The notes beneath the pieces were generated by a model. It had not been told where the DNA came from and did not search any database. It saw nothing but the letters and a program-made list of their open reading frames with translations. Source: Auanema rhodensis (lineage: Eukaryota > Animalia > Nematoda). Taken from it: DNA of 64,000 bases. The translations under genes and the position numbers were made by a program. The DNA lies in NCBI GenBank assembly GCA_964057225.1, contig OZ059895.1, forward strand, positions 3,534,001 to 3,598,000, in the 5' to 3' direction. Below, piece by piece: positions 7,507-64,000 of this stretch; position 1 is the stretch's first letter, and each line of letters begins with the position of its first letter.

Positions 7507-7538
7507 AATGAATTGAAGGGCATGTTTTAAATGTTTAA
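7507..7538. other. Inversion junction of the satellite with a 32-nt templated insertion
   Basis: The forward monomer stops at ...GGGCATGTTTTA (7506) and the reverse-complement monomer starts at AATGAACTGACC (7539). Between them: AATGAA TTGAAGGGCATGTTTTA AATG TTTAA. Confidence 0.93.
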
Positions 7539-31500: not shown

Positions 31501-34500
31501 TGCCCTTCAAAGCATCAGAACATGTGATCACATTCCAATTTTTTTGTATCTATTTTGTAAAGATAGTAATATATCATATGTTGAACACTATGTTGGAAAG
31601 ATTTTAATTCAGATTTTCTAACTTTTATTCAGTTTGTTTTTTAAACTTTGATTAAGAACTTTGATTTTTGTACACCCATAAATTATACGCAGCACAGGTT
31701 ACCCTTAAATAATGAACTGACCGACTAATCAGACATGGATCTTTCCTAGTTCTGTTGCTTGAATGGATGTTTTCCTACGTAGGCTAGTAAAACATGCCCT
31801 TCAAAACATCAGAACATGTGATCACATTCCAATTTTTTTGTATCTGTTTTGTAAAGATAGTAATATATCATATGTTGAACACTATGTTGGAAAGATTTTA
31901 ATTCAGATTTTCTAACTTTTATTCAGTTTGTTTTTTAAACTTTGATTAAGAACTTTGATTTTTGTACACCCATAAATTATACGCAGCACAGGTTACCCTT
32001 AAATAATGAACTGACCGACTAATCAGACATGGATCTTTCCTAGTTCTGTTGCTTGAATGGATGTTTTCCTACGTAGGCTAGTAAAACATGCCCTTCAAAA
32101 CATCAGAACATGTGATCACATTCCAATTTTTTTGTATCTGTTTTGTAAAGATAGTAATAAACTTTGATTTTTGTACACCCATAAATTATACGCAGCACAG
32201 GTTACCCTTAAATAATGAACTGACCGACTAATCAGACATGGATCTTTCCTAGTTCTGTTGCTTGAATGGATGTTTTCCTACGTAGGCTAGTAAAACATGC
32301 CCTTCAAAGCATCAGAACATGTGATCACATTCCAATTTTTTTGTATCTATCTTGTAAAGATAGTAATATATCATATGTTGAACACTATGTTGGAAAGATT
32401 TTAATTCAGATTTTTTCAACTTTCACTCAGTTTGTTTTCTAAACTTTGATTAAGAACCTTGAGTTTTGTACACCCATAAATTATACGCAGCACAGGTTAC
32501 CCTTAAATAATGAACTGACCGACTAATCAGACATGGATCTTCCCAAGTTCTGTTGCTTGAATGGATGTTTTCCTACGTAGGCTAGTAAAACATGCCCTTC
32601 AAAACATCAGAACATGTGATCACATTCCAATTTTTTTGTATCTGTTTTGTAAAGATAGTAATAAACTTTGATTTTTGTACACCCATAAATTATACGCAGC
32701 ACAGGTTACCCTTAAATAATGAACTGACCGACTAATCAGACATGGATCTTTCCAAGTTCTGTTGCTTGAACGGATGTTTTCCTACGTAGGCTAGTAAAAC
32801 ATGCCCTTCAAAGCATCAGAACATGTGACCACATTCCAATTTTTTTGTATCTATCTTGTAAAGATAGTAATATATCATATGTTGAACACTATGTTGGAAA
32901 GATTTTAATTCAGATTTTTTCAACTTTCACTCAGTTTGTTTTCTAAACTTTGATTAAGAACCTTGAGTTTTGTACACCCATAAATTATACGCAGCACAGG
33001 TTACCCTTAAATAATGAACTGACCGTCTAATCAGACATGGATCTTCCCAAGTTCTGTTGCTTGAATGGATGTTTTCCTACGTAGGCTAGTAAAACATGCC
33101 CTTCAAAGCATCAGAACATGTGATCACATTCCAATTTTTTTGTATCTATCTTGTAAAGATAGTAATATATCATATGTTGAACACTATGTTGGAAAGATTT
33201 TAATTCAGATTTTCTAACTTTTATTCAGTTTGTTTTTTAAACTTTGATTAAGAACTTTGATATTTGTACACCCATAAATTATACGCAGCACAGGTTACCC
33301 TTAAATAATGAACTGACCGACTAATCAGACATGGATCTTTCCTAGTTCTGTTGCTTGAATGGATGTTTTCCTACGTAGGCTAGTAAAACATGCCCTTCAA
33401 AGCATCAGAACATGTGATCACATTCCAATTTTTTTGTATCTATTTTGTAAAGATAGTAATATATCATATGTTGAACACTATGTTGGAAAGATTTTAATTC
33501 AGATTTTCTAACTTTTATTCAGTTTGTTTTTTAAACTTTGATTAAGAACTTTGATTTTTGTACACCCATAAATTATACGCAGCACAGGTTACCCTTAAAT
33601 AATGAACTGACCGACTAATCAGACATGGATCTTTCCTAGTTCTGTTGCTTGAATGGATGTTTTCCTACGTAGGCTAGTAAAACATGCCCTTCAAAACATC
33701 AGAACATGTGATCACATTCCAATTTTTTTGTATCTGTTTTGTAAAGATAGTAATAAACTTTGATTTTTGTACACCCATAAATTATACGCAGCACAGGTTA
33801 CCCTTAAATAATGAACTGACCGACTAATCAGACATGGATCTTTCCTAGTTCTGTTGCTTGAATGGATGTTTTCCTACGTAGGCTAGTAAAACATGCCCTT
33901 CAAAACATCAGAACATGTGATCACATTCCAATTTTTTTGTATCTGTTTTGTAAAGATAGTAATAAACTTTGATTTTTGTACACCCATAAATTATACGCAG
34001 CACAGGTTACCCTTAAATAATGAACTGACCGACTAATCAGACATGGATCTTTCCTAGTTCTGTTGCTTGAATGGATGTTTTCCTACGTAGGCTAGTAAAA
34101 CATGCCCTTCAAAGCATCAGAACATGTGATCACATTCCAATTTTTTTGTATCTATCTTGTAAAGATAGTAATATATCATATGTTGAACACTATGTTGGAA
34201 AGATTTTAATTCAGATTTTTTCAACTTTCACTCAGTTTGTTTTCTAAACTTTGATTAAGAACCTTGAGTTTTGTACACCCATAAATTATACGCAGCACAG
34301 GTTACCCTTAAATAATGAACTGACCGACTAATCAGACATGGATCTTCCCAAGTTCTGTTGCTTGAATGGATGTTTTCCTACGTAGGCTAGTAAAACATGC
34401 CCTTCAAAGCATCAGAACATGTGATCACATTCCAATTTTTTTGTATCTATCTTGTAAAGATAGTAATAAACTTTGATTTTTGTACACCCATAAATTATAC

Positions 34501-37500
34501 GCAGCACAGGTTACCCTTAAATAATGAACTGACCGACTAATCAGACATGGATCTTTCCAAGTTCTGTTGCTTGAACGGATGTTTTCCTACGTAGGCTAGT
34601 AAAACATGCCCTTCAAAGCATCAGAACATGTGACCACATTCCAATTTTTTTGTATCTATCTTGTAAAGATAGTAATATATCATATGTTGAACACTATGTT
34701 GGAAAGATTTTAATTCAGATTTTTTCAACTTTCACTCAGTTTGTTTTCTAAACTTTGATTAAGAACCTTGTTGTTTGTACACCCATAAAATATACGCAGC
34801 ACAGGTTACCCTTAAATAATGAACTGACCGTCTAATCAGACATGGATCTTCCCAAGTTCTGTTGCTTGAATGGATGTTTTCCTACGTAGGCTAGTAAAAC
34901 ATGCCCTTCAAAGCATCAGAACATGTGATCACATTCCAATTTTTTTGTATCTATCTTGTAAAGATAGTAATATATCATATGTTGAACACTATGTTGGAAA
35001 GATTTTAATTCAGATTTTCTAACTTTTATTCAGTTTGTTTTTTAAACTTTGATTAAGAACTTTGATATTTGTACACCCATAAATTATACGCAGCACAGGT
35101 TACCCTTAAATAATGAACTGACCGACTAATCAGACATGGATCTTTCCTAGTTCTGTTGCTTGAATGGATGTTTTCCTACGTAGGCTAGTAAAACATGCCC
35201 TTCAAAGCATCAGAACATGTTATCACATTCCAATTTTTTTGTATCTATCTTGTAAAGATAGTAATAAACTTTGATTTTTGTACACCCATAAATTATACGC
35301 AGCACAGGTTACCCTTAAATAATGAACTGACCGACTAATCAGACATGGATCTTTCCAAGTTCTGTTGCTTGAACGGATGTTTTCCTACGTAGGCTAGTAA
35401 AACATGCCCTTCAAAGCATCAGAACATGTGACCACATTCCAATTTTTTTGTATCTATCTTGTAAAGATAGTAATATATCATATGTTGAACACTATGTTGG
35501 AAAGATTTTAATTCAGATTTTTTCAACTTTCACTCAGTTTGTTTTCTAAACTTTGATTAAGAACCTTGTTGTTTGTACACCCATAAAATATACGCAGCAC
35601 AGGTTACCCTTAAATAATGAACTGACCGTCTAATCAGACATGGATCTTCCCAAGTTCTGTTGCTTGAATGGATGTTTTCCTACGTAGGCTAGTAAAACAT
35701 GCCCTTCAAAGCATCAGAACATGTGATCACATTCCAATTTTTTTGTATCTATCTTGTAAAGATAGTAATAAACTTTGATTTTTGTACACCCATAAATTAT
35801 ACGCAGCACAGGTTACCCTTAAATAATGAACTGACCGACTAATCAGACATGGATCTTCCCAAGTTCTGTTGCTTGAATGGATGTTTTCCTACGTAGGCTA
35901 GTAAAACATGCCCTTCAAAGCATCAGAACATGTGATCACATTCCAATTTTTTTGTATCTATTTTGTAAAGATAGTAAAATATCATATGTTGAACACTATG
36001 TTGGAAAGATTTTAATTCAGATTTTCTAACTTTTATTCAGTTTGTTTTTTAAACTTTGATTAAGAACTTTGATTTTTGTACACCCATAAATTATACGCAG
36101 CACAGGTTACCCTTAAATAATGAACTGACCGACTAATCAGACATGGATCTTTCCTAGTTCTGTTGCTTGAATGGATGTTTTCCTACGTAGGCTAGTAAAA
36201 CATGCCCTTCAAAACATCAGAACATGTGATCACATTCCAATTTTTTTGTATCTATTTTGTAAAGATAGTAATAAACTTTGATTTTTGTACACCCATAAAT
36301 TATACGCAGCACAGGTTACCCTTAAATAATGAACTGACCGACTAATCAGACATGGATCTTTCCTAGTTCTGTTGCTTGAATGGATGTTTTCCTACGTAGG
36401 CTAGTAAAACATGCCCTTCAAAGCATCAGAACATGTGACCACATTCCAATTTTTTTGTATCTGTTTTGTGAAGATAGTAAAATATCATATGTTGAACACT
36501 ATGTTGGAAAGATTTTAATTCAGATTTTCTAACTTTTATTCAGTTTGTTTTTTAAACTTTGATTAAGAACTTTGATTTTTGTACACCCATAAATTATACG
36601 CAGCACAGGTTACCCTTAAATAATGAACTGACCGACTAATCAGACATGGATCTTTTCTAGTTCTGTTGCTTGAATGGATGTTTTCCTACGTAGGCTAGTA
36701 AAACATGCCCTTCAAAACATCAGAACATGTGATCACATTCCAATTTTTTTGTATCTATTTTGTAAAGATAGTAATAAACTTTGATTTTTGTACACCCATA
36801 AATTATACGCAGCACAGGTTACCCTTAAATAATGAACTGACCGACTAATCAGACATGGATCTTTCCTAGTTCTGTTGCTTGAATGGATGTTTTCCTACGT
36901 AGGCTAGTAAAACATGCCCTTCAAAGCATCAGAACATGTGATCACATTCCAATTTTTTTGTATCTATCTTGTAAAGATAGTAATATATCATATGTTGAAC
37001 ACTATGTTGGAAAGATTTTAATTCAGATTTTCGAACTTTTATTCAGTTTGTTTTTCAAACTTTGATTAAGAACTTTGATTTTTGTACACCCATAAATTAT
37101 ACGCAGCACAGGTTACCCTTAATTAATGAACTGACCGACTAATCAGACATGGATCTTTCCAAGTTCTGTTGCTTGAATGGATGTTTTCCTACGTAGGCTA
37201 GTAAAACATGCCCTTCAAAGCATCAGAACATGTGATCACATTCCAATATTTTTGTATCTATCTTGTAAAGATAGTAATATATCATATGTTGAACACTATG
37301 TTGGAAAGATTTTAATTCAGATTTTTTCAACTTTCACTCAGTTTGTTTTCTAAACTTTGATTAAGAACCTTGAGTTTTGTACACCCATAAATTATACGCA
37401 GCACAGGTTACCCTTAAATAATGAACTGACCGACTAATCAGACATGGATCTTTCCTAGTTCTGTTGCTTGAATGGATGTTTTCCTACGTAGGCTAGTAAA

Positions 37501-40500
37501 ACATGCCCTTCAAAGTATCAGAACATGTGATCACATTCCAATTTTTTTGTATCTATCTTGTAAAGATAGTAATATATCATATGTTGAACACTATGTTGGA
37601 AAAATTTTAATTCAGATTTTCGAACTTTTATTCAGTTTGTTTTTCAAACTTTGATTAAGAACTTTGATTTTCGTACTCCCATAAATTATACGCAGCACAG
37701 GTTACCCTTAATTAATGAACTGACCGACTAATCAGACATGGATCTTTCCAAGTTCTGTTGCTTGAACGGATGTTTTCCTACGTAGGCTAGTAAAACATGC
37801 CCTTCAAAGCATCAGAACATGTGACCACATTCCAATTTTTTTGTATCTATTTTGTAAAGATAGTAATAAACTTTGATTTTTGTACACCCATAAATTATAC
37901 GCAGCACAGGTTACCCTTAAATAATGAACTGACCGACTAATCAGACATGGATCTTTCCAAGTTCTGTTGCTTGAACGGATGTTTTCCTACGTAGGCTAGT
38001 AAAACATGCCCTTCAAAGCATCAGAACATGTGACCACATTCCAATTTTTTTGTATCTATCTTGTAAAGATAGTAATATATCATATGTTGAACACTATGTT
38101 GGAAAGATTTTAATTCAGATTTTTTCAACTTTCACTCAGTTTGTTTTCTAAACTTTGATTAAGAACCTTGTTGTTTGTACACCCATAAAATATACGCAGC
38201 ACAGGTTACCCTTAAATAATGAACTGACCGTCTAATCAGACATGGATCTTCCCAAGTTCTGTTGCTTGAATGGATGTTTTCCTACGTAGGCTAGTAAAAC
38301 ATGCCCTTCAAAGCATCAGAACATGTGATCACATTCCAATTTTTTTGTATCTATCTTGTAAAGATAGTAATAAACTTTGATTTTTGTACACCCATAAATT
38401 ATACGCAGCACAGGTTACCCTTAAATAATGAACTGACCGACTAATCAGACATGGATCTTCCCAAGTTCTGTTGCTTGAATGGATGTTTTCCTACGTAGGC
38501 TAGTAAAACATGCCCTTCAAAGCATCAGAACATGTGATCACATTCCAATTTTTTTGTATCTATTTTGTAAAGATAGTAAAATATCATATGTTGAACACTA
38601 TGTTGGAAAGATTTTAATTCAGATTTTCTAACTTTTATTCAGTTTGTTTTTTAAACTTTGATTAAGAACTTTGATTTTTGTACACCCATAAATTATACGC
38701 AGCACAGGTTACCCTTAAATAATGAACTGACCGACTAATCAGACATGGATCTTTCCTAGTTCTGTTGCTTGAATGGATGTTTTCCTACGTAGGCTAGTAA
38801 AACATGCCCTTCAAAACATCAGAACATGTGATCACATTCCAATTTTTTTGTATCTATTTTGTAAAGATAGTAATAAACTTTGATTTTTGTACACCCATAA
38901 ATTATACGCAGCACAGGTTACCCTTAAATAATGAACTGACCGACTAATCAGACATGGATCTTTCCTAGTTCTGTTGCTTGAATGGATGTTTTCCTACGTA
39001 GGCTAGTAAAACATGCCCTTCAAAGCATCAGAACATGTGACCACATTCCAATTTTTTTGTATCTGTTTTGTGAAGATAGTAAAATATCATATGTTGAACA
39101 CTATGTTGGAAAGATTTTAATTCAGATTTTCTAACTTTTATTCAGTTTGTTTTTTAAACTTTGATTAAGAACTTTGATTTTTGTACACCCATAAATTATA
39201 CGCAGCACAGGTTACCCTTAAATAATGAACTGACCGACTAATCAGACATGGATCTTTTCTAGTTCTGTTGCTTGAATGGATGTTTTCCTACGTAGGCTAG
39301 TAAAACATGCCCTTCAAAACATCAGAACATGTGATCACATTCCAATTTTTTTGTATCTATTTTGTAAAGATAGTAATAAACTTTGATTTTTGTACACCCA
39401 TAAATTATACGCAGCACAGGTTACCCTTAAATAATGAACTGACCGACTAATCAGACATGGATCTTTCCTAGTTCTGTTGCTTGAATGGATGTTTTCCTAC
39501 GTAGGCTAGTAAAACATGCCCTTCAAAGCATCAGAACATGTGATCACATTCCAATTTTTTTGTATCTATCTTGTAAAGATAGTAATATATCATATGTTGA
39601 ACACTATGTTGGAAAGATTTTAATTCAGATTTTCGAACTTTTATTCAGTTTGTTTTTCAAACTTTGATTAAGAACTTTGATTTTTGTACACCCATAAATT
39701 ATACGCAGCACAGGTTACCCTTAATTAATGAACTGACCGACTAATCAGACATGGATCTTTCCAAGTTCTGTTGCTTGAATGGATGTTTTCCTACGTAGGC
39801 TAGTAAAACATGCCCTTCAAAGCATCAGAACATGTGATCACATTCCAATATTTTTGTATCTATCTTGTAAAGATAGTAATATATCATATGTTGAACACTA
39901 TGTTGGAAAGATTTTAATTCAGATTTTTTCAACTTTCACTCAGTTTGTTTTCTAAACTTTGATTAAGAACCTTGAGTTTTGTACACCCATAAATTATACG
40001 CAGCACAGGTTACCCTTAAATAATGAACTGACCGACTAATCAGACATGGATCTTTCCTAGTTCTGTTGCTTGAATGGATGTTTTCCTACGTAGGCTAGTA
40101 AAACATGCCCTTCAAAGTATCAGAACATGTGATCACATTCCAATTTTTTTGTATCTATCTTGTAAAGATAGTAATATATCATATGTTGAACACTATGTTG
40201 GAAAAATTTTAATTCAGATTTTCGAACTTTTATTCAGTTTGTTTTTCAAACTTTGATTAAGAACTTTGATTTTCGTACTCCCATAAATTATACGCAGCAC
40301 AGGTTACCCTTAATTAATGAACTGACCGACTAATCAGACATGGATCTTTCCAAGTTCTGTTGCTTGAACGGATGTTTTCCTACGTAGGCTAGTAAAACAT
40401 GCCCTTCAAAGCATCAGAACATGTGACCACATTCCAATTTTTTTGTATCTATCTTGTAAAGATAGTAATATATCATATGTTGAACACTATGTTGGAAAGA

Positions 40501-43104
40501 TTTTAATTCAGATTTTTTCAACTTTCACTCAGTTTGTTTTCTAAACTTTGATTAAGAACCTTGTTGTTTGTACACCCATAAAATATACGCAGCACAGGTT
40601 ACCCTTAAATAATGAACTGACCGTCTAATCAGACATGGATCTTCCCAAGTTCTGTTGCTTGAATGGATGTTTTCCTACGTAGGCTAGTAAAACATGCCCT
40701 TCAAAGCATCAGAACATGTGATCACATTCCAATTTTTTTGTATCTATCTTGTAAAGATAGTAATAAACTTTGATTTTTGTACACCCATAAATTATACGCA
40801 GCACAGGTTACCCTTAAATAATGAACTGACCGACTAATCAGACATGGATCTTCCCAAGTTCTGTTGCTTGAATGGATGTTTTCCTACGTAGGCTAGTAAA
40901 ACATGCCCTTCAAAGCATCAGAACATGTGATCACATTCCAATTTTTTTGTATCTATTTTGTAAAGATAGTAAAATATCATATGTTGAACACTATGTTGGA
41001 AAGATTTTAATTCAGATTTTCTAACTTTTATTCAGTTTGTTTTTTAAACTTTGATTAAGAACTTTGATTTTTGTACACCCATAAATTATACGCAGCACAG
41101 GTTACCCTTAAATAATGAACTGACCGACTAATCAGACATGGATCTTTCCTAGTTCTGTTGCTTGAATGGATGTTTTTCTACGTAGGCTAGTAAAACATGC
41201 CCTTCAAAACATCAGAACATGTGATCACATTCCAATTTTTTTGTATCTATTTTGTAAAGATAGTAATAAACTTTGATTTTTGTACACCCATAAATTATAC
41301 GCAGCACAGGTTACCCTTAAATAATGAACTGACCGACTAATCAGACATGGATCTTTCCTAGTTCTGTTGCTTGAATGGATGTTTTCCTACGTAGGCTAGT
41401 AAAACATGCCCTTCAAAGCATCAGAACATGTGACCACATTCCAATTTTTTTGTATCTGTTTTGTGAAGATAGTAAAATATCATATGTTGAACACTATGTT
41501 GGAAAGATTTTAATTCAGATTTTCTAACTTTTATTCAGTTTGTTTTTTAAACTTTGATTAAGAACTTTGATTTTTGTACACCCATAAATTATACGCAGCA
41601 CAGGTTACCCTTAAATAATGAACTGACCGACTAATCAGACATGGATCTTTTCTAGTTCTGTTGCTTGAATGGATGTTTTCCTACGTAGGCTAGTAAAACA
41701 TGCCCTTCAAAACATCAGAACATGTGATCACATTCCAATTTTTTTGTATCTATTTTGTAAAGATAGTAATAAACTTTGATTTTTGTACACCCATAAATTA
41801 TACGCAGCACAGGTTACCCTTAAATAATGAACTGACCGACTAATCAGACATGGATCTTTCCTAGTTCTGTTGCTTGAATGGATGTTTTCCTACGTAGGCT
41901 AGTAAAACATGCCCTTCAAAGCATCAGAACATGTGATCACATTCCAATTTTTTTGTATCTATCTTGTAAAGATAGTAATATATCATATGTTGAACACTAT
42001 GTTGGAAAGATTTTAATTCAGATTTTCGAACTTTTATTCAGTTTGTTTTTCAAACTTTGATTAAGAACTTTGATTTTTGTACACCCATAAATTATACGCA
42101 GCACAGGTTACCCTTAATTAATGAACTGACCGACTAATCAGACATGGATCTTTCCAAGTTCTGTTGCTTGAATGGATGTTTTCCTACGTAGGCTAGTAAA
42201 ACATGCCCTTCAAAGCATCAGAACATGTGATCACATTCCAATATTTTTGTATCTATCTTGTAAAGATAGTAATATATCATATGTTGAACACTATGTTGGA
42301 AAGATTTTAATTCAGATTTTTTCAACTTTCACTCAGTTTGTTTTCTAAACTTTGATTAAGAACCTTGAGTTTTGTACACCCATAAATTATACGCAGCACA
42401 GGTTACCCTTAAATAATGAACTGACCGACTAATCAGACATGGATCTTTCCTAGTTCTGTTGCTTGAATGGATGTTTTCCTACGTAGGCTAGTAAAACATG
42501 CCCTTCAAAGTATCAGAACATGTGATCACATTCCAATTTTTTTGTATCTATCTTGTAAAGATAGTAATATATCATATGTTGAACACTATGTTGGAAAAAT
42601 TTTAATTCAGATTTTCGAACTTTTATTCAGTTTGTTTTTCAAACTTTGATTAAGAACTTTGATTTTCGTACTCCCATAAATTATACGCAGCACAGGTTAC
42701 CCTTAATTAATGAACTGACCGACTAATCAGACATGGATCTTTCCAAGTTCTGTTGCTTGAACGGATGTTTTCCTACGTAGGCTAGTAAAACATGCCCTTC
42801 AAAGCATCAGAACATGTGACCACATTCCAATTTTTTTGTATCTATCTTGTAAAGATAGTAATAAACTTTGATTTTTGTACACCCATAAATTATACGCAGC
42901 ACAGGTTACCCTTAAATAATGATTTGACCGACTAATCAGACATGGATCTTTCCAAGTTCTGTTGCTTGAATGGATGTTTTCCTACGTAGGCTAGTAAAAC
43001 ATGCCCTTCAAAGCATCAGAACATGTGATCACATTACAATTTTTTTGTATCTATCTTGTAAAGATAGTAATATATCATATGTTGAACACTATGTTGGAAA
43101 GATT
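7539..43104 (-). repeat. Satellite DNA array (reverse orientation), 294/295/209-bp monomers in higher-order repeats
   Basis: Reverse complement of the left-arm monomer. Spacings 36883->37472 = 294+295 and 42467->42970 = 294+209. Confidence 0.99.
43101..43104 (+). other. Target-site duplication GATT, left copy
   Basis: Satellite GGAAA-GATT-TTAATTCAG is split as GGAAAGATT|element|GATTTTAATTCAG. Confidence 0.95.
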
Positions 43105-43439
43105 CGTTCCGTTATGCTCTCGCACTATCCTATAGACCAATGTAGTCTATAAGATGTGCGATACAGTGTTCCAGATGTAGCGGTATTAATAGAGCATAAT
43201 GGATAACATAAGACTCATGAAAAGAAAGGTTTATTCTACATAATGATTACAATAAGTTACGATAAGAATTAAAGAGATATAAACTATAGGTGAGCTCTGA
43301 GGAGATGACAAGCCATCCTTAGTCATTCCATGAGACAGAACTAAAGTCTGAGTTCCATATAAAGGGCGTGTCAGCTCCTCTCGTCTCTTGTCGTCTAGCT
43401 CTAACCCGCCTGCTACGTATTGATCATCCGAATGGAACG
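43105..43439 (-). repeat. 3' LTR (335 bp)
   Basis: Matches 54270-54604 with no difference found by eye; ends CGTTCC...GGAACG. Confidence 0.97.
43230..43235 (-). terminator. Candidate polyadenylation signal AATAAA in the 3' LTR
   Basis: TTTATT on the + strand, followed on the minus strand by a T-rich tract. Confidence 0.5.
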
Positions 43440-44173: not shown

Positions 44174-47100
44174 TTATCTTCTTCTTGATGGTATCCAATT
44201 ATGATCTGATGGGTCTTCTGAGTCAATTTCGGTGTCTAATTCTTCGTTATTGTTTCCGTGTATAACTTCGATAATTTCGATGTCACTGTCGTCATCTGAG
44301 TCGCTGTTTCTAGCTTTGGAGCGAGTGTTGTGCGCTGCTCCACATGTTGCACTTCGATTGAAAAGTTTCAAGTTGTCTTTGTGTATATCTTGGAGTTTTC
44401 CAAAAGGATTCTTGATTTGTACCATTGATCCTTTTACTTTGATGACCTCAAAAGGTCCATCATAACATTTCCTCAGCTTTTGACCTATTTTATGTGACTT
44501 AATGGTCAACATAACTTGGTCTCCTTCACTGATGTCTCTTTCTTCAATTCGTTGTCTTGAATCGTGTTTCTTCTTTGCTTGTTGCTGATGTTTTTCCAAG
44601 TTATCTTGAATGATAGATTTTCTTTCTTGACGAAGTTGTTCCATGTTTTCTATATCAATGGATATTGTTCCTGATTCCGGTGTTTCAGGTGATAATTCTT
44701 TATCGAGTCTCATACGACTTTCTTTTCCGAATAAAGCTATATATGGTGATATTCCTGTTGTTGAGTGTGTTGTGGTGTTTAACGCAAAGGTGACTTTTGG
44801 CAAAAATAAGTCCCAATCAGTAACTTCTTCGTTCAAATAATGTGTTAATCCTTCTTCTAACGTCCTATGTAGTCTTTCCACTTGTCCGTTAGAGTTCTTC
44901 TGATGCGGGAGTGTTGGTTCATGTTTTATGCCGAGTTTATCACACATATTTTCGAATTTCTTTGATACAAAATTGGAACCTCGATCTGTTATTAGTCGAT
45001 TTGGAGGTCCATAAATGTATACAAAATTTCTGAGGAATCTGTCGATGACAACGTCCGTAACTATTGTAGGTATAGCAATAGTTGTCGCCCATTTGGAAAA
45101 AGAGTCCTGGATTGTAAGAACGTAGTTGTTGTTTCTTTTTGATGTTGGGAAGGGTCCCATGATATCCATATGTATTCTCTCAAATGGTTTAGATGGTATT
45201 TCGAATTGACCCATTGGCTGAACGGTCATAGCATGAGGGTCTTTCTTTCTTTGTGCGCATTTAACGCATTGTTTCACAAAAATTGCTATGTCCGTTTGCA
45301 TATTTGTCCAGAAGAATCTTCGTAATATGGCTTCTTTAGTTTTATTAATTCCTTGATGTGCCCCGATTGCTGGGTCTTCATGAAATTCTTCGATGATCTT
45401 GCTGATCAGTTCGCTCTCTCGTGGTAAAACTAAGGCTGGGTGTGGTCTTTTCGTGCTCGGTTTTGTGTACAGCATGTTATCAATTACACAATAACGATCA
45501 TTGGAGAGCATGTTTTTCTTTGTTCTGTATTCAATTTCGGCAATTGTCTTTTTGATCCAAGGTGTATTGCTTTGTATTTGTTTAATGTCTGGTATGTTAA
45601 CAAAGTTAACCTGAGCAAGTTGAGGCTCTTTAACTTTCTTTTTCTTTTCTGGCTTTGGATCATTAGTTTCGTCTCCAATGTATCGTGAAAGAGCGTCACA
45701 GACTTTGTTTAGTCTACCTTCACGATATCTGATCTCAATGTTGTATTCCTGTATTACTAATTGAAATTTTGCTAGTCTTCCAAACAAATCTCTTCGTGTC
45801 ATTAAGCTTGTTAATGGTCGGTGATCCGTAATGCATATTGCGTGTGATCCAAGTATATAAGTCCGAAACTGAGCAAGCGCGTATACTAATCCTAGGGCTT
45901 CGATCTCAATAGGAGGATAGTTTCGTTCGGCTTTAACTAATTTTCTACTTGCAAAAGCAATAGGATGTAAGTTTTTCAAAGGTTCATTCGGATCTTCAGG
46001 TTGTAACAGTACTGCTCCGATGGCTATATTGCTGCCATCGCTTTCAATTATGAAAGTACGATCTGCTCTTGGTGGTTTCAGTACTGGTGCTTCCATTAAT
46101 CTTTTCTTTAATTTTTCTAGCGCTTGTTGGCACTGATCTGACCATTTGAAATCTGTGTCCAGTTTTGTGAGATCATATAGAGGGCTTGCGATGTGAGCAA
46201 AGTCTTTAATGAATTTCCGAAAGAATCCTACCATTCCCAAAAATGCTCTAACTCCCGTAGGTGACTGTGGAGCAGGATAGTCTTGGATGGCGGAAACTTT
46301 CTTTGGATCAGGCTTAACTCCATCTCTTCCAACAATTAACCCAAGAAATTTGACTTCTGGTCTAGCAAATGAGCATTTCTTGAGCTTTATCTTCAATCCT
46401 AGTTCTTCAATTCTTTCGAGTACTTCTTCAATATCATATATGTGTTGTTCTGCATTATCTGATATAACAAGTAGATCGTCTAAGTAAACGAATAGTCTGC
46501 ATTTGCATCTGCTTTGAAGGTATCGTACCGCAGTTTGGAAGGTATGTGGAGCGCCACATAATCCCATAGGCATCCTTCTGTATTGATACGTTCCCGTATT
46601 TGTTGTGAAGGCTGTTAAGGATCGGTCTGATTTCTTTAATGGTATTTGGAAAAATCCCGAAACTAAATCAAAATTGGAAAAATATTTTGATCCAGCTGCC
46701 ATATCAATAATGTCGGAGATATTAGGAATTACATATGTTTGCTTCCGTGTAACGTTGTTTAAGGCGCGGAAATCAGTTACAAAACGAAATGTATCGTCCT
46801 TTTTCCTCACTAATACGACAGGACTATTGAACAGTGATGTTGATGGTTCGATTATTCCTTGTTGAAGCATTTCCTGTACTTGTCTTTCAATTTCCTCTTG
46901 TTTCCCTAAGGGTATACGAGTGATCCTAGGTTTAGGCATATCCATGTCAGTTCTTAATGGTATGCTGTGTTCTACAGGGCCTTTGAACAGTCCTATATTT
47001 TTGTCTTCATTGAGGAAAGCCTTTTTTCGTCTGCGAATTATAGAACGTAAATGATCTTTAAGATTTTGTGTAAGATCGGCATCTTTTAGATCAAGTTCTT

Positions 47101-50100
47101 TCATAAAATCAGTTGGAAAAGTAGGTAATTTACTTTCCCAATCAGCTTCAGGTGGAATATAGTCTTGTTTTTGATCAGTTGTGAAGATTTCATAGTCAGG
47201 CATGATTCCTATCTCAGCTTTAGTAATTACGTGTCCTGATGGTAATTCAATAAATTTGTTGGAGTTGTTTTTGAACGTGATATCAATGGAATTAACATCG
47301 CGAAATGCTGTATGGTATTTGGGTGTTAACATATTGTTATTATCTATCGAGAGCATCGCGAAAGAATCGTCTCTGATGGGTTTTTCTAATTGAACTTGTA
47401 GTGTACAAGTTTCGTTTGGAAGCATATCTCGCTGTTTTAAGTTAATCAGATTGACAGTTGTTGATGTTTTGCTGAGTCTTCCGTCAATTCCATTAGCTAA
47501 CCGTACTACGCGGTTTCCAATTTCTAGTGTCCTTTTGTATGGTCTAAGTTTCATGCCAATGTTTTGACTGTCAAGTGTCTTCATGAAATCTAATCCAATT
47601 AATGCTGGTGAAGGGCAGTCTTCATCGTTGGATATATAGAATGTATGATCGATTTCATATCCGGCAATTTCGACGGTTAGATCTATTGTACCGATGAATC
47701 GAAATTCTGATCCGTTTGCTGTTGTAGCACTTGATTTATTGTTCTTTACAAAGTCGTTTAAAGTCAAGTAATGTAGTGTTGATACTCTGATATAACTGAT
47801 AGATGATCCTGAATCCCATAAGGTGAGGACTAATCTGTCATTAACAGTCATCCATAATAGTGGTAAAGATTGATCTTTCCTTTTTGAAATTGAACAAACC
47901 AATGGTATTGCAATTGGTATATACGTCAGTATTGATGGGTAGTATTGCTTCATTATGTTTCTTGGAATGGGTTGATCAGGTTGAGTAACTAGCTCTAAGG
48001 TTTCTTCGTATGTAGGTGGGTTACTATTTCGATCCTTCAGTTCAATGTGCATGACTGGTATCGGAATTGATTTGAGGAAGTAGACCTTGATGATAAATGC
48101 TAGTATGATCACAATTATTATAACAGATGTGATTGCACCAATTGTAATTAGTGTTCGTTCGATTGTCCCTACCATCGTATCAATGAATGAATTCCAAGTG
48201 TTTTTTGTGAATTCGTGTGCTTTAGATATGTAGTCACTACTCTTCTTTAAAACACTATAAGCGGCTGATATTTTAGGATCATTGTGAATTGTATGAAGTA
48301 CATGATTTTGACGGATTGACGCTAAACTAGCACCATAAGCAATGGCTGTGGTCATGGAGTATACACGTGATGTTAAATTAGTGTAAAGGTGTGCTCCAGT
48401 GAATTTTAATGGTGTGATCTTTTCGTGATGCAGTCCATCTCCCATGGATATGAGACTGACATCTACTGTGCCATTGATTCCTTTCCATTCACCGTCTGCT
48501 GACCATACGTCTGTTGGTACGTGATCACAATTGATTTCTTTTCCGTGGGGTAGAAGATCTTTTGATCCTGGTGCTGCGAATAGTAATTGGCCTTCTTCGG
48601 TTAAAATTGGCGTTTCGAGATAACATGTATTGTTTACCGTGTGATTGTGATAAATAGTTTTTGTGAAAACTGTTGGGCAAACATGTACGTGTAATATCTC
48701 ACTTCCAACGAAACGAGCTGCTATGTCTTCTCTTCCAAGGATAGTACGCATAGCGATTGTTGGTTCGATTTGTAAAATTGATCGCCATAGCTCTAGATAT
48801 CTATTTTGGATCTCACATATTGATTCGTATGACTCTTTGAAATGTTTCTGTAGCTCGCTTTGAATCATTGTTGTGGCGTATTGCAAATGATCTTGTGCAA
48901 TCTTGCTCGTAATGTTTTGGCGATACTGTTCTTCCGAGTCAATTTTCGAAGCTATGTAATGAGCTTGAGCCTGAACAGACTGTATTTCTTTTGCTGTTGG
49001 TGTTGATGAAGCTCTCTGTTTCCGAATCAATGTCGTGGGTAAGTATGTTATTTCGTCCATTATTGGAATTTGTTGATCTTTATAAGTGGCGTAGAGCTTT
49101 GTTGATGTTGGCGCCTGGGTAGTCGATATTGTCGCGCGTGCGGTAGTTGTTGCGGTTGTGTAGCTCTCTGTTATTTTCGGCTCGGCTGTCGACGATGGCG
49201 CGCGCGCGGTAGTCGCTGCGGTTGCTTGAGGGCTTGTTATTGCATGCGGCTGCATTGCGGGATCTGATTCGATGGTCGTCTTCCGATCGATTATGGGTTG
49301 GGCTGATGTTGCTGCCGCGCCGCCTGCAGCGACGCTCGGCGTACGCGTCGTGGTTTGCAGCGATTCAAGCTCGAGTTTCTCTGCCATTAGTCTCCTTAGG
49401 TGTTCTGGTGATATTCTACTTGAAGTATAAGGCAATTTCTTTTCAGCAAGTAGTGGCAAGAAAATTTTCAATAATAAATCTTTAGAGATTTTACTAGGCT
49501 TGATGAGCTTAGGGTGTGGACCGATTGGTATTCCAAAATTATTTTTGATATCGTAAAACAGTTTATCAGTATTTTGTACAAACATTCGTGATGCAGGAAG
49601 ATTAATAAATTTCATCTCATCAATGTCTGCTGCTGTTTTGTTTTTCCTAATTTTTATGAGAGTTTTAAGTTCGGTTACAAGATTAATTGTTTCTTGTATG
49701 AATTCGCTCTTTTGTGCTTCTTCATTTGTTAGTATCTTTTGTCGTATCGGTGGTAATTTCACAAAAGATTGTAACACTTCTTGTCTAGATGGAACAGTGA
49801 GGTTTTCTTCGATTATGACTGGGGTATTAGCTAAATCAAGCGCAATACTTTCAGTTCTTTCACGGTAAGTGCCTTCTTTGGTATGAAGAATGCGATCGAA
49901 TTCAATAACAGTTAACCGATCAGATATTTGTTGAAGTAATTGTTTGGGTGTTAGATAAGATATTCCTGTCTTTGTTGCTAACGCCAGTTCTCTTTGTGCA
50001 ACATATTGTAGGATTGCTTCATCTTTATCGCGAAAATCGTATTGTTTAAGAAAATGTCTTAAGGATTTATCATAAATTTGGATTTTAAAGAAAAATTCAA

Positions 50101-52843
50101 ATTTCTCGCGATTAGCAGTTATCCATTCCTTTAAAGAGTACGTGGGATCTGCCATTCGTCTTCCTTTGATTAAAGAGATAATCTGCGTAATGCCCGGATT
50201 GCTCATAATTGGTCTCAAAAAGGCATATGGGCATATGTGAAGCGTATGAGTCTCAAAATCTTCAACTTCCATTACTCTATCTTGGTCTAAAGGGAATGAA
50301 CATCCTGTAGCGATTGCGCGTTTTTGTCTTTTAAACGGCAATTTTCTAAACTCTCTTTCTACGAGGATAGTAATGTTATTGTCATTTGGAAATTTGGGGA
50401 GTATGATGTAGTTCCCCGATGTTGTGTGAAATGCTGGTTGTCTAAAACACGAAGCGATAGGTTTTGGGGTTGGTTTGTTCGAAAGGATAAGAGCAGATTG
50501 TGTGCTCGGAATTAGGATAGTATCGCCGCTAATGATGGCTTCATATGTGTGCATATCTATGTAATTGCAACGGGAATCCGTAGTTTGTGGATCCCAAATA
50601 ATTATTGATGTGTTTGATTTGCAGTTACCATGATGCGCACTGCACCCTTCAGTGTTTAGTAGTAAGTTTGAAAGGATGGTATCGTCTGGCATGCGGGTCA
50701 TAACACCCCGCTCCAGTACTAAACGCGACCGCTCCTCGCACTCGTCGCGGCTAAACGCTCGCGCCGGATCGAAGGAGGGTTCAGGGGTTGCTTGGGCAAT
50801 ACTATCGATTCTTTCTAGTTCCATATTATTCCACTTTCGATCGCGAATTGCCTGCCTGCATGACTGCACGCTTATAGGCTCTATCCTATCGATTGTTTTG
50901 TTGCTGTCGCGAAGGAATAATAAATCGCGTACACACAGCCTGTGCACTTCCTTCGAGCAGCGCCACGCGTCCCACTCGTGGGCTGTGTGATTGCGAGTGT
51001 ATAGATGGACTTGTGTTTGGATCACGTGGTTTGCTTCGGTTAATTTGCATTTCTTTAATGTTGGAGGCATGAGTAGTGCTCCCCCTGTTGCTTTTGTGCA
51101 TGCTTGGTAGCTTGACGCACAAGGTAGCAGTATTGCTGCTGCTAATGCCATTACAACAGTTAATGAGAGTGGTGAAAGAGAGATGGAGTTAACTCTTGAA
51201 GAGCTCCTATCTCTTCCTCTCGATTGGTTTCTTCGTTCTTTAAATTGTACTCGCCTTTGTCCATTTCTTCCTCCTTGATTGTTATATCGAGGATTATAAT
51301 TATTTTGGTACCAATTAGTACCATTATTGCTGTTTTGACGCTCGTTATTTCTTCCAAAATTATTTGGACGGCGATTATTTCCAAAATTATTATTACGTTG
51401 TTGGAAATTGTTATAATTTGAACGGTTTTTATTTGTTTGATAATTTTGATAATTTTGATAATTTTGATTACCGCGCTGGTAACTTCGGTCAAAAGTTCTG
51501 TTATCTCTTCTCTCTTTATTGCGCGTAAAGGGAGCTAGTGCTTGGTTAACTGCATTCACTAGCATCGCCTGAGTGTCTGCCGTCTGGTTCAATATTGATT
51601 CTTCCCAGCGAGCAGCCTCAATCGCCTCAGCAAAGGTTTTGGGCCTTGCTCGGATCACTCCTGCCTTCAGAGTATTTTTAAGTCCTCTCAGGAAGGTTGA
51701 TCTTAGTATGTGATCCTTATGTGGGTCATCACTGGCAAAAGCACTAAGGCTTATTGTTCGCAAAGCCTGAGCAAAGGCATCAATCGAAAGATCCCCTTGA
51801 CTAGTGTTTTGAAGGCTGATCAGTGCTGGGTCCTGATTATATTCAGGACAGAGCTTTGATGTTAAAGCTGCTAACAAATCGTTCCATGAACCCGATGTTT
51901 TAAGGTGTTCAGGAGTTTGTTTGTATGCTTCTTCTGCCGCATCATTTTTAAGAAGCAACGGCAGAAGAGTCAACCTTTCAGGTATCACTAGGCCAAGTGC
52001 ATTAGCGAAGACATTAAATTTCGCGGTAAAGTCGCGGAAATTGCGGCTACCGTCATAAACAGGGCAGTAGGGTGATGTTAAAACTTGGGCAATTGTTGTT
52101 TTCCCCGCTCCGGGTAAATTGGTTGCGGGCTCGGTCATTTTTTTCGGAACAGCTATTACTGTATGTGCAGATCTTGAACTTCCTGACGTAGGAGTAATGT
52201 GCTCTGTTTGGTTATATTGGTTAGGTGTCGTCAATTCGTCTAATCTTGGACTATTGAGAATTGGGGTTGATGTTTGTGGGTTATTTTTCAAAAGTTTTCT
52301 TTGCTCCGGTGAGGTGATTGGAGATAACGTATAGCGCGTGTATGTATTGGGTATTGTAGCAAGTCGCTGTGCTCGGCTAGATTTTGGGTTTGGGTCTTTG
52401 GGTGAGCGATTCAATAAATCAACGACTTTGTTTTTGAGAGATTGTAAGCCTGTTGTTGAAGGTGAACCAGTAGGTTCTTGACTTGAGAGAGAGAGAGAGA
52501 TATCAGAATTATTTAGATTTTTATTATTTTTATTTTTATGTATATTGGAAGAGCGTACCTTTTCTTTCGTAGTGGTGTTCGGTGTCTGTTCGTCTATCAC
52601 CAAGGGTCGCTCGTCGTCTCCAGATGGTATATAGTCCGGATCACTAGAACGTTCTGAAGGAGAAAACGTACCTGCACGGGGCGTGTAAAATTTTTCCACG
52701 TTAGGCTTCTCCTCTGCTGTGTCTTCGTTGATAATGGCGACACTTTGCGCGCGAGTTCGGCTTCTGGTTACTGGAGCTGAGTCGCGGGGATCCGGGTTGG
52801 AGTGCGTACTGAGAGGTACTGCTGAGTTATACCTTCTCTCCAC
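44174..52843 (-). CDS. Gag-Env-Pol polyprotein in a single frame (2889 aa from a GTG; first in-frame ATG at 52138, so the true start is uncertain)
   Basis: Uninterrupted 8.7-kb ORF containing capsid-like, glycoprotein, DSG protease, YLDD RT, RNase H and HHCC/DDE integrase motifs. Confidence 0.95.
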   Translation of the reverse strand: MERRYNSAVPLSTHSNPDPRDSAPVTRSRTRAQSVAIINEDTAEEKPNVEKFYTPRAGTFSPSERSSDPDYIPSGDDERPLVIDEQTPNTTTKEKVRSSNIHKNKNNKNLNNSDISLSLSSQEPTGSPSTTGLQSLKNKVVDLLNRSPKDPNPKSSRAQRLATIPNTYTRYTLSPITSPEQRKLLKNNPQTSTPILNSPRLDELTTPNQYNQTEHITPTSGSSRSAHTVIAVPKKMTEPATNLPGAGKTTIAQVLTSPYCPVYDGSRNFRDFTAKFNVFANALGLVIPERLTLLPLLLKNDAAEEAYKQTPEHLKTSGSWNDLLAALTSKLCPEYNQDPALISLQNTSQGDLSIDAFAQALRTISLSAFASDDPHKDHILRSTFLRGLKNTLKAGVIRARPKTFAEAIEAARWEESILNQTADTQAMLVNAVNQALAPFTRNKERRDNRTFDRSYQRGNQNYQNYQNYQTNKNRSNYNNFQQRNNNFGNNRRPNNFGRNNERQNSNNGTNWYQNNYNPRYNNQGGRNGQRRVQFKERRNQSRGRDRSSSRVNSISLSPLSLTVVMALAAAILLPCASSYQACTKATGGALLMPPTLKKCKLTEANHVIQTQVHLYTRNHTAHEWDAWRCSKEVHRLCVRDLLFLRDSNKTIDRIEPISVQSCRQAIRDRKWNNMELERIDSIAQATPEPSFDPARAFSRDECEERSRLVLERGVMTRMPDDTILSNLLLNTEGCSAHHGNCKSNTSIIIWDPQTTDSRCNYIDMHTYEAIISGDTILIPSTQSALILSNKPTPKPIASCFRQPAFHTTSGNYIILPKFPNDNNITILVEREFRKLPFKRQKRAIATGCSFPLDQDRVMEVEDFETHTLHICPYAFLRPIMSNPGITQIISLIKGRRMADPTYSLKEWITANREKFEFFFKIQIYDKSLRHFLKQYDFRDKDEAILQYVAQRELALATKTGISYLTPKQLLQQISDRLTVIEFDRILHTKEGTYRERTESIALDLANTPVIIEENLTVPSRQEVLQSFVKLPPIRQKILTNEEAQKSEFIQETINLVTELKTLIKIRKNKTAADIDEMKFINLPASRMFVQNTDKLFYDIKNNFGIPIGPHPKLIKPSKISKDLLLKIFLPLLAEKKLPYTSSRISPEHLRRLMAEKLELESLQTTTRTPSVAAGGAAATSAQPIIDRKTTIESDPAMQPHAITSPQATAATTARAPSSTAEPKITESYTTATTTARATISTTQAPTSTKLYATYKDQQIPIMDEITYLPTTLIRKQRASSTPTAKEIQSVQAQAHYIASKIDSEEQYRQNITSKIAQDHLQYATTMIQSELQKHFKESYESICEIQNRYLELWRSILQIEPTIAMRTILGREDIAARFVGSEILHVHVCPTVFTKTIYHNHTVNNTCYLETPILTEEGQLLFAAPGSKDLLPHGKEINCDHVPTDVWSADGEWKGINGTVDVSLISMGDGLHHEKITPLKFTGAHLYTNLTSRVYSMTTAIAYGASLASIRQNHVLHTIHNDPKISAAYSVLKKSSDYISKAHEFTKNTWNSFIDTMVGTIERTLITIGAITSVIIIVIILAFIIKVYFLKSIPIPVMHIELKDRNSNPPTYEETLELVTQPDQPIPRNIMKQYYPSILTYIPIAIPLVCSISKRKDQSLPLLWMTVNDRLVLTLWDSGSSISYIRVSTLHYLTLNDFVKNNKSSATTANGSEFRFIGTIDLTVEIAGYEIDHTFYISNDEDCPSPALIGLDFMKTLDSQNIGMKLRPYKRTLEIGNRVVRLANGIDGRLSKTSTTVNLINLKQRDMLPNETCTLQVQLEKPIRDDSFAMLSIDNNNMLTPKYHTAFRDVNSIDITFKNNSNKFIELPSGHVITKAEIGIMPDYEIFTTDQKQDYIPPEADWESKLPTFPTDFMKELDLKDADLTQNLKDHLRSIIRRRKKAFLNEDKNIGLFKGPVEHSIPLRTDMDMPKPRITRIPLGKQEEIERQVQEMLQQGIIEPSTSLFNSPVVLVRKKDDTFRFVTDFRALNNVTRKQTYVIPNISDIIDMAAGSKYFSNFDLVSGFFQIPLKKSDRSLTAFTTNTGTYQYRRMPMGLCGAPHTFQTAVRYLQSRCKCRLFVYLDDLLVISDNAEQHIYDIEEVLERIEELGLKIKLKKCSFARPEVKFLGLIVGRDGVKPDPKKVSAIQDYPAPQSPTGVRAFLGMVGFFRKFIKDFAHIASPLYDLTKLDTDFKWSDQCQQALEKLKKRLMEAPVLKPPRADRTFIIESDGSNIAIGAVLLQPEDPNEPLKNLHPIAFASRKLVKAERNYPPIEIEALGLVYALAQFRTYILGSHAICITDHRPLTSLMTRRDLFGRLAKFQLVIQEYNIEIRYREGRLNKVCDALSRYIGDETNDPKPEKKKKVKEPQLAQVNFVNIPDIKQIQSNTPWIKKTIAEIEYRTKKNMLSNDRYCVIDNMLYTKPSTKRPHPALVLPRESELISKIIEEFHEDPAIGAHQGINKTKEAILRRFFWTNMQTDIAIFVKQCVKCAQRKKDPHAMTVQPMGQFEIPSKPFERIHMDIMGPFPTSKRNNNYVLTIQDSFSKWATTIAIPTIVTDVVIDRFLRNFVYIYGPPNRLITDRGSNFVSKKFENMCDKLGIKHEPTLPHQKNSNGQVERLHRTLEEGLTHYLNEEVTDWDLFLPKVTFALNTTTHSTTGISPYIALFGKESRMRLDKELSPETPESGTISIDIENMEQLRQERKSIIQDNLEKHQQQAKKKHDSRQRIEERDISEGDQVMLTIKSHKIGQKLRKCYDGPFEVIKVKGSMVQIKNPFGKLQDIHKDNLKLFNRSATCGAAHNTRSKARNSDSDDDSDIEIIEVIHGNNNEELDTEIDSEDPSDHNWIPSRRR
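44400..45400 (-). other. Integrase domain (HHCC zinc finger, DDE core, GPY/F motif); boundaries approximate
   Basis: HEDPAIGAHQG...CVKC; IHMDIMGPF; TDRGSNF; NGQVERLH; YDGPFEV. Confidence 0.95.
45680..46060 (-). other. RNase H domain; boundaries approximate
   Basis: FIIESDGS...IGAVLLQ; AFASRKL..AERNY..IEIEAL; TDHRPL; CDALSR. Confidence 0.95.
46280..47050 (-). other. Reverse transcriptase domain (Ty3/Gypsy type); boundaries approximate
   Basis: SPVVLVRKKD..RFVTDFRALN; FDLVSGFFQI; MPMGLCGAP; YLDD at 46475-46486; VKFLG. Confidence 0.97.
47560..47870 (-). other. Retropepsin-type aspartic protease; boundaries approximate
   Basis: LWDSGSSISYI (DSG at 47807-47815), flap TANGS, C-terminal LIGLDFM. 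Confidence 0.92.
48074..51184 (-). other. Envelope glycoprotein region: signal peptide, Cys-rich ectodomain, furin site, mucin-like segment, gB-like core helix, TM anchor
   Basis: Signal SLTVVMALAAAILLPCASS|YQAC; KRQKR at 50318-50332; about 10 N-X-S/T sequons; HLQY...ICEIQNRYLELWRSILQIEPTIAMRTILGREDIAARFVG...VC...CYLETP; TM TLITIGAITSVIIIVIILAFIIKVYFL. Confidence 0.88.
51190..52138 (-). other. Gag: capsid-like domain (about 51590-52070) followed by an N/Q/R-rich low-complexity tail with no zinc knuckle
   Basis: PVYDGS..F..F..KF; W..L..AL; QGDLSIDAFAQALR; FLRGL; PKTFAEAIEAARWEE, all typical retrotransposon Gag motifs. Confidence 0.85.
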
Positions 52844-52933
52844 CTTGTTAGGACTCTTGGTTTGAAAAAACCTCGAGTGTCTGATTACGTGTGGGATGAT
52901 GGAATTTGAACGTAATTGGGTGGGTATGTACGT

Positions 52934-53137
52934 TTAGTTGTTGGTGGTAAGTTGGGAAAAGCTAGATTGAGACTGACAACTGGTTTGGTCAAGTCGGAAG
53001 GATAGGAATGAATCCAAGGTTCTGGCCATAACTTTAGATCCGCCTTCTACCGTACTTTGAAATTGGACTTTGGTTATCTTGGTCTTTTGGGTCCAATTTG
53101 TATAGCATTTGCATTTTTCTTTTCTCTTTGCACGCAT
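52934..53137 (-). CDS. 67-aa upstream ORF in the same frame as the polyprotein, separated from it by a single TAA
   Basis: 53137-52843 is divisible by 3. Manual translation: ...QLTTNN*TYIPTQLRSNSIIPHVIRHSRFFQTKSPNKVERRY... Confidence 0.35.
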   Translation of the reverse strand: MRAKRKEKCKCYTNWTQKTKITKVQFQSTVEGGSKVMARTLDSFLSFRLDQTSCQSQSSFSQLTTNN

Positions 53138-54256: not shown

Positions 54257-54269
54257 GGTGGAACCTCCA
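54257..54269 (-). promoter_or_regulatory. Primer-binding site complementary to the tRNA-Gln 3' end
   Basis: TGGAGGTTCCACC directly abuts the 5' LTR; metazoan tRNA-Gln ends ...GGTGGAACCT-CCA (recalled, not searched). Confidence 0.85.
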
Positions 54270-54604
54270 CGTTCCGTTATGCTCTCGCACTATCCTATAG
54301 ACCAATGTAGTCTATAAGATGTGCGATACAGTGTTCCAGATGTAGCGGTATTAATAGAGCATAATGGATAACATAAGACTCATGAAAAGAAAGGTTTATT
54401 CTACATAATGATTACAATAAGTTACGATAAGAATTAAAGAGATATAAACTATAGGTGAGCTCTGAGGAGATGACAAGCCATCCTTAGTCATTCCATGAGA
54501 CAGAACTAAAGTCTGAGTTCCATATAAAGGGCGTGTCAGCTCCTCTCGTCTCTTGTCGTCTAGCTCTAACCCGCCTGCTACGTATTGATCATCCGAATGG
54601 AACG
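54270..54604 (-). repeat. 5' LTR (335 bp)
   Basis: Direct repeat of 43105-43439; adjacent to the PBS. Confidence 0.97.
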
Positions 54605-54608
54605 GATT
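54605..54608 (+). other. Target-site duplication GATT, right copy
   Basis: GGAACG|GATT|TTAATTCAG. Confidence 0.95.
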
Positions 54609-63600: not shown

Positions 63601-64000
63601 ATATCATATGTTGAACACTATGTTGGAAAGATTTTAATTCAGATTTTCTAACTTTTATTCAGTTTGTTTTTTAAACTTTGATTAAGAACTTTGATTTTTG
63701 TACACCCATAAATTATACGCAGCACAGGTTACCCTTAAATAATGAACTGACCGACTAATCAGACATGGATCTTTCCTAGTTCTGTTGCTTGAATGGATGT
63801 TTTCCTACGTAGGCTAGTAAAACATGCCCTTCAAAACATCAGAACATGTGATCACATTCCAATTTTTTTGTATCTGTTTTGTAAAGATAGTAATAAACTT
63901 TGATTTTTGTACACCCATAAATTATACGCAGCACAGGTTACCCTTAAATAATGAACTGACCGACTAATCAGACATGGATCTTTCCAAGTTCTGTTGCTTG
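54605..64000 (-). repeat. Satellite array resumes in the same orientation and register
   Basis: The monomer continues exactly where it was interrupted; 209-bp monomers become more frequent toward the window end. Confidence 0.99.

Follow-up and report, generated by a model that had tools for sequence, protein, structure and literature searches.

Retroviruses and insect errantiviruses carry env 3′ of pol and express it from a spliced RNA. The structural polyproteins of flaviviruses and alphaviruses run from capsid through an internal signal and a glycoprotein to cytosolic enzymes, with cuts made by host and viral proteases. Non-canonical nematode endogenous retroviruses (NERV) were described by Sacco et al. 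in 2022 (J Gen Virol), reportedly with one continuous gag-env-pro-pol ORF, a nyamivirus-like glycoprotein and accessory helicase ORFs. GAG-ENV-POL gypsy elements with an HSV/gB-type Env have been catalogued in Nematoda, Bryozoa and Platyhelminthes by Chary and Hayashi (eLife 2026, PMC13524379), who credit Sacco et al. 2022 for the flipped env/pol order in nematodes; the sections of their main text available to us held no treatment of polyprotein continuity, topology or processing. Among nematode gypsy elements, Cer1 of C. elegans needs its genomic RNA to stay unspliced, yet it also makes a spliced CERV product, with acceptors reported as TTTCAG/TTGCAG; it lacks a recognisable Env (PMC10309623).

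Here we describe a Ty3/gypsy element of the GAG-ENV-POL layout in Auanema rhodensis, within a window that is the whole 64,000-nt stretch of DNA analysed. It shares with the catalogued elements (PMC13524379) the gene order, a gB-type Env with signal and TM, and a Ty3/gypsy Pol. Its LTR-to-LTR size is 11,500 bp, against 11,542 bp in Clat_1, and its Gln primer site, like that of the Caenorhabditis members, is of the type given in 8 of the 36 nematode rows of Suppl. 1, with an identical 12-mer in two of them; Auanema is not in those 36 rows. The original prediction did not recognise the architecture as a described family, and the claim of novelty falls because this catalogue already holds it. Our additions are modest: sequence support for an unspliced, threaded polyprotein, CG...CG LTR ends and a helical insert in Env. 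We consider it probable that the locus is an intact, likely recent member of the published group, with a polyprotein that by prediction passes through the ER membrane two times and is likely made from unspliced RNA. Our literature search for nematode gag-env-pro-pol elements and endogenous retroviruses found no further description, and we do not claim the mechanism as unpublished; a search on Burro elements found nothing relevant.

The window is nearly all host satellite (1..43104, resuming at 54605-64000, with no strand assigned) in mixed 209/295-bp units, and the sole non-satellite island is the element, which takes up 11,500 bp of the minus strand at 54604-43105. Positions are those of the window, and all element features given below lie on the minus strand. 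The satellite units form higher-order patterns and change orientation once, near 7506-7539. The element is bounded by a 5′ LTR (54270..54604) and a 3′ LTR (43105..43439), each of 335 bp and 100% identical, with AATAAA at LTR position 205, and by a 4-bp target-site duplication that reads AATC on the minus strand (left 54605..54608, right 43101-43104). In 3/3 DNA runs loose ends ran from the element into satellite at 54605 and 43104. A tRNA-Gln primer-binding site (54257..54269) directly follows the 5′ LTR; its first 12 nt, as reverse complement, are identical to the sequence that PMC13524379 Suppl. 1 gives as Gln_UUG_CUG for Clat_errantivirus_4 and for Ctro_errantivirus_1. Since the LTRs are identical and the frame is intact, the insertion is likely recent. 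The termini of both LTRs are CG...CG, not TG...CA, and their outermost 6 bp form an inverted repeat (CGTTCC/GGAACG). LTRs usually end in TG...CA, which is common and not universal, with known exceptions. We treat the CG...CG ends as a variant within Ty3/gypsy; the integrase may favour ends of an unusual kind. A search with the LTR-PBS pattern for sister DNA gave 0 matches and two metagenome scans gave no sister-element DNA; a viral scan gave two distant loci, neither with an Env match.

A single ORF, Gag-Env-PR-RT-RH-IN, occupies 44174..52933 and measures 2,919 codons stop to stop. It is the only ORF of at least 150 aa in the window; the remaining frames of its strand are broken by 178 and 222 stops. 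Along it Pfam finds, in order, Gag (weak), a viral fusion glycoprotein/gB, protease, RT, RNase H and integrase. This stop-free frame and the domain order bear out the original prediction of gag, env and pol, in that order, in one uninterrupted polyprotein; of the bounds it gave (44174..52843) the ORF stands, but 52843 falls inside the frame, which starts at 52933. The accessory helicase ORFs reported for NERV are absent from the element.

The first ATG of the ORF is Met266 at 52138, in the context AAAAAA-ATG. The 265 open codons ahead of it (52139..52933) are ATG-free in all frames; these 795 nt contain 0 ATG against 5-9 expected, and a stop-free frame arose in 0/5000 shuffles. Because the 795 nt are open in frame and ATG-free they hint at an N-terminally extended form of Gag; the 265-aa region had no relative among the fetched proteins and no Pfam match. 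Upstream, an ATG-led ORF of 67 codons in the Gag frame (52934..53137) runs into the stop codon at the upstream edge of the long ORF. The leader contains 18 ATGs, which count against simple ribosome access to Met266. From Met266, Gag extends over 51170..52138 and consists of a capsid region, with a weak Retrotrans_gag match at aa 331-419 (E 0.0012, below the Pfam cutoff), followed by an Asn/Arg-rich segment in which no CCHC finger was found.

The Pol part comprises an aspartic protease (aa 1695-1785, 47579..47851, DSG at aa 1707), reverse transcriptase (aa 2042-2200, 46334..46810, YLDD at aa 2150), RNase H (aa 2264-2397, 45743..46144) and an integrase with zinc finger and core (aa 2507-2677, 44903..45415, HHCC and D-D-E motifs). 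The nearest solved structure to its RT is that of Ty3 (E 5e-43; retroviral RTs reach no better than 2e-23). With its LTR pair, target-site duplication, tRNA primer site and PR-RT-RH-IN order the element is Ty3/gypsy (Metaviridae). Env-bearing BEL/Pao elements (Atlas, Tas-like) likewise encode Env in a single polyprotein, but after the integrase and not before Pol, and P0070, P0130 and P0081 are gB-bearing BEL proteins among our Env matches. Belpaoviridae membership was ruled out by this position of Env ahead of IN and by the absence from the ORF, in Pfam, of the BEL/Pao markers Peptidase_A17, DUF1759 and DUF5641, all present in BEL control proteins. The plan of Retroviridae and insect errantiviruses, in which a spliced env follows pol, was rejected too, since env comes before pol here and the sense strand is without TTNCAG. 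The PR-RT spacer (window 47150-47500) looks dUTPase-like by eye and has no Pfam hit in the element; one relative, P0131, has a marginal Pfam dUTPase match (E 0.037).

In a FastTree phylogeny of 94 RT sequences the element falls amid Env-before-Pol proteins of Caenorhabditis and Diploscapter; this placement is weakly supported, and midpoint rooting of the tree was poor. Twenty relatives were looked up, and 10/10 with an organism name are from nematodes. Auanema RT fragments are 76-83% identical to the RT of the element. Judged by these nearest proteins, a rhabditid host is likely.

Between Gag and protease lies the membrane glycoprotein of about 1000 aa that the original prediction had placed there, as signal, ectodomain and TM spanning about 51.1-48.1 kb. 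It consists of a predicted internal signal peptide (aa 589-608, 51110..51169), a gB-like (class III) ectodomain (aa 609-1595, 48149..51109) and a predicted transmembrane helix (aa 1596-1614, 48092..48148). Pfam matches Monjiviricetes_fusion at aa 1350-1621 (E 1.4e-13) and, below cutoff, Glycoprotein_B at aa 1347-1430 (E 3.6e-8). The ectodomain was modelled with AlphaFold2 from 73 sequences (pLDDT 71.6, pTM 0.50). The model was compared with PDB by Foldseek, where every match listed was herpesvirus gB (best E 6e-10), and with a viral structure library, where rhabdo-like virus, nyavirus and herpesvirus glycoproteins were found (best E 7e-13), Nyavirus G at rank 4. The gB likeness is a match at the level of domains only, because TM-scores were low (0.10-0.19 by query, about 0.23 by target; rmsd 12-26 A). 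As modelled, Env is a gB-like, class III fusogen. It has one furin-type site, RQKR, at aa 869-872 (50318-50329); only 39/84 family proteins have such sites.

The spacer between the gB halves is 474 aa, among the longest of 84 proteins (range -8 to 487). Right after the furin site it holds an all-helical insert (aa 873-1200, 49334..50317), adjoined by a disordered Thr/Ala-rich stretch at about aa 1200-1300. The insert, of ~330 aa, is present in a few relatives, and its model (9 sequences) has pLDDT 71.8 and pTM 0.71. It had no Pfam match, 0 matches at E<=0.001 in BFVD, weak matches near 0.9 only in the ESM Atlas, and a best Z of 3.7 in PDB with no family assigned. The insert is possibly a new fold, which absence of matches alone does not show.

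The topology proposed at the outset, a chain that passes the membrane twice and returns Pol to the cytosol, holds by prediction. Only two membrane-spanning segments were predicted in the polyprotein (dG 0.8 and -4.0; next best 6.5), and this places Gag and Pol together on one face of the membrane, with Env on the opposite face. For the element, a further TM ahead of PR, which would leave Pol in the lumen, was rejected (dG 6.5, three prolines). Among relatives, a second segment between TM and PR had dG <2 in 0/70 proteins and <5 in 4/70, and by the looser Kyte-Doolittle test a second hydrophobic patch preceded PR in 8/50. A signal-like segment lies ahead of Env in 26/28 and 13/13 Gag-Env proteins; since Met is found within 45 aa before it in only 8/28, the segment fits an internal signal. 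The charge distribution follows the positive-inside rule modestly (of 50 proteins, 29 are up and 9 down). From these models the polyprotein likely threads the membrane twice, with capsid and enzymes in the cytoplasm.

The course of events that we propose is as follows. Translation would begin at Met266 on the full-length RNA, Gag would stay cytosolic, and the internal signal would send Env into the lumen. A signal peptidase cut near aa 608 would yield Gag-signal and Env-Pol, and therefore no lasting Gag-Pol fusion. The TM would halt transfer and leave the tail and PR-RT-RH-IN cytosolic, and furin would cleave Env at RQKR. Signal-tethered Gag and Env-Pol would meet on the same membrane before budding, where Env trimers would crowd the protease and a late-domain-like tail motif would recruit budding machinery; the element protease would then cut V-N-x-hydrophobic sites in the cytosolic linkers, giving free Gag and enzymes. 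The likeness to flavivirus and alphavirus polyproteins is one of working only, with no homology; the element is reverse-transcribing and has a class III fusogen.

Candidate processing sites were sought in the linkers with a motif chosen by eye, [VI]N[ASNT][VIL]. It occurs in 31/50 cytosolic tails (shuffle mean 1.7) and before 12/28 signals (shuffle mean 0.39), and tails carry 10.5 per 1000 aa where ectodomains carry 0.27; a second set, which shares close kin with the first, gave 12/21 tails and 5/13 before signals. The element itself has the motif at aa 459, 581 and 1880 and relaxed forms at aa 1679, 1827 and 2442, several of these sites at domain borders, and also a relaxed form at 1083 in the lumenal insert. 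We infer from the placement at domain borders that V-N-x-hydrophobic is the site of the element's protease. The element's own predicted tail (47867..48091) has only the relaxed form, the candidate site VCSI at aa 1679. P[TS]AP is an ESCRT late domain, and it is found in 8/50 and 4/21 tails of the two sets (shuffle means 0.22 and 0.08). The element tail has PPTY (aa 1639), not P[TS]AP; PPxY was rejected as a family trait, being not enriched (3/50 versus 0.93 in shuffles, and 0/21).

The Env-TM-PR part of the layout is bridged by contigs in 3 DNA runs from 3 studies (47334-48830, 46220-48830 and 46918-48551), one of which is possibly the source of the window's own assembly, and Env contigs have a depth like that of Pol contigs. 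No contig bridging the Gag-Env junction was among the pieces listed from these runs; the evidence for this junction comes from the window itself and from P0002 and other relatives. An Auanema protein with 45-50% identity has Gag-signal-Env-TM-PR-RT in one chain. Our Env-search set numbers 151, made up of the top 150 among 373 Env-PR matches and this Auanema protein; it contains 60 with Env before Pol in one chain, 74 with Env only, 12 with Pol only, 4 with Pol before Env and 1 with neither; two of the four Pol-before-Env proteins were domain-scanned and are BEL/Pao. An RT-only search was also run, which therefore avoids selecting relatives by their Env. Among the 120 listed, Env came before Pol in 22/22 proteins of at least 44% identity, a cutoff set after viewing the list, and short proteins were left out of this search. 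A search of short proteins found Gag joined to PR in 0/9, and Env stem, TM or tail before PR in 4/4 that had PR. The relatives are gene predictions, and frame joining was read at the protein level.

Splice-acceptor words were counted in a test planned beforehand, with shuffles and the antisense strand as comparison for this one element. TTNCAG, the core of the nematode acceptor, is absent from the sense strand of both the ORF and the whole element, against 9.7-9.9 expected in the ORF, and zero was reached in 0/1000 synonymous shuffles. It is the most depleted (rank 1) of 1024 gapped words and the sole zero count among 693 well-expected words; antisense it is not depleted (7 versus 10.9 expected). 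The two distant loci of the viral scan have 2 and 21 on their plus strands, a weak control. Because its sense strand has no such words an unspliced RNA is favoured, and splicing looks to have been selected against in the element. Cer1 differs in having TTTCAG-type acceptors (PMC10309623).

Copies with large deletions were found in the DNA runs. A joint of 51021 to 44609, which keeps gag and signal and removes most of env/pol, is present in 3/3 runs (X1, X2, X7) at depths of 79, 104 and 27. The env/pol contigs of these runs lie at about 25-28, 43-52 and 9-16, and depth is not copy number. The joint takes out aa 638-2775, a multiple of three by coordinates. Because of that divisibility, gag-only deletion copies might supply extra capsid in trans. 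As a splice, this 6,411-bp joint was rejected, being not GT-AG and occurring in DNA runs. A second, diverged and doubly deleted copy has joints 52559/50330 and 50253/44367 (runs X2, X12); its 52559 joint begins at a donor-like AG|GTACG, with no AG end in the window letters.

Several other accounts of the locus were weighed. A satellite array is hard to assemble and Env-less deletion copies exist, so the Env block might be a misassembly or a one-off insertion in an ordinary gypsy element; the relatives, the contigs of other runs and the published GAG-ENV-POL group refute this, and we give it practically no weight. The Env block recurs beyond this copy, as the original prediction needed it to, on the strength of the bridging contigs in 3 runs and the 22/22 RT relatives. 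We also regard as improbable a spliced RNA that lacks env and yields an ordinary Gag-Pol, or a separate env RNA with its start at Met595 in the signal. Cer1 does make a spliced product (PMC10309623), one joint of the diverged copy starts at a GT donor-like site, 52559, and Met595 is inside the hydrophobic core of the signal. These points have to be set against a whole element whose sense strand lacks TTNCAG, a common deletion joint that is not GT-AG and is found in DNA, the few relatives (8/28) with a Met up to 45 aa upstream of the signal, and Env in frame with Pol in 60 proteins.

Harder to set aside, and still doubtful in our judgement, is an account that keeps the topology but has Pol cut early from the Env tail and packaged through Gag or RNA contacts, with gag-only copies perhaps adding Gag, so that products are not equimolar; the original prediction had proposed that Pol would enter particles through Env, in nominally equimolar amounts. 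Candidate protease sites between TM and PR in 31/50 proteins could release Pol before budding, and the 51021-44609 joint, in 3/3 DNA runs, has two to three times the depth of env/pol contigs, depth being no copy number. Retroviral-type proteases normally need dimerisation at assembly, which tethering to the Env trimer would supply, and the deleted copies are known from DNA runs. Somewhat better placed, at a little under an even chance as we see it, is that Env serves cell-to-cell spread or membrane anchoring within one animal, with no free infectious particle. The organism-named relatives are all nematodes, and PMC13524379 argues for long vertical descent; against this use of Env, the ectodomain is intact, and so are the furin site and the motifs that resemble late domains. 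A within-animal Env is compatible with the threaded topology that we prefer.

Building on that preferred topology, we put forward tentatively, as less likely than not, a fuller picture: an RNA that is never spliced, a flavivirus-style polyprotein, Gag tethered by the Env signal, Pol and a late-domain signal on the Env tail, V-N cuts in the cytosol only, gag-only copies topping up capsid in trans, and a lineage-added helical domain of 330 aa and possibly new fold, together making an assembly unlike that of any studied retrovirus. If membrane threading is right, a free-living nematode lineage would have a third way to package Pol, beside the Gag-Pol fusion and separately made Pol. The missing acceptors, the protease-like motifs in the linkers and the late-domain-like motifs in the tails make specific predictions for membrane threading.

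Some relatives vary the arrangement. P0047 is an Env-before-Pol polyprotein with an RRM domain between Gag and Env. Related gypsy polyproteins of Strongyloides papillosus (P0200-P0204) gave no gB match and no strong TM; they have a signal-like segment near aa 430-450 and at least about 600 aa ahead of PR, and from their sequences they possibly carry a different cargo in the Env slot.
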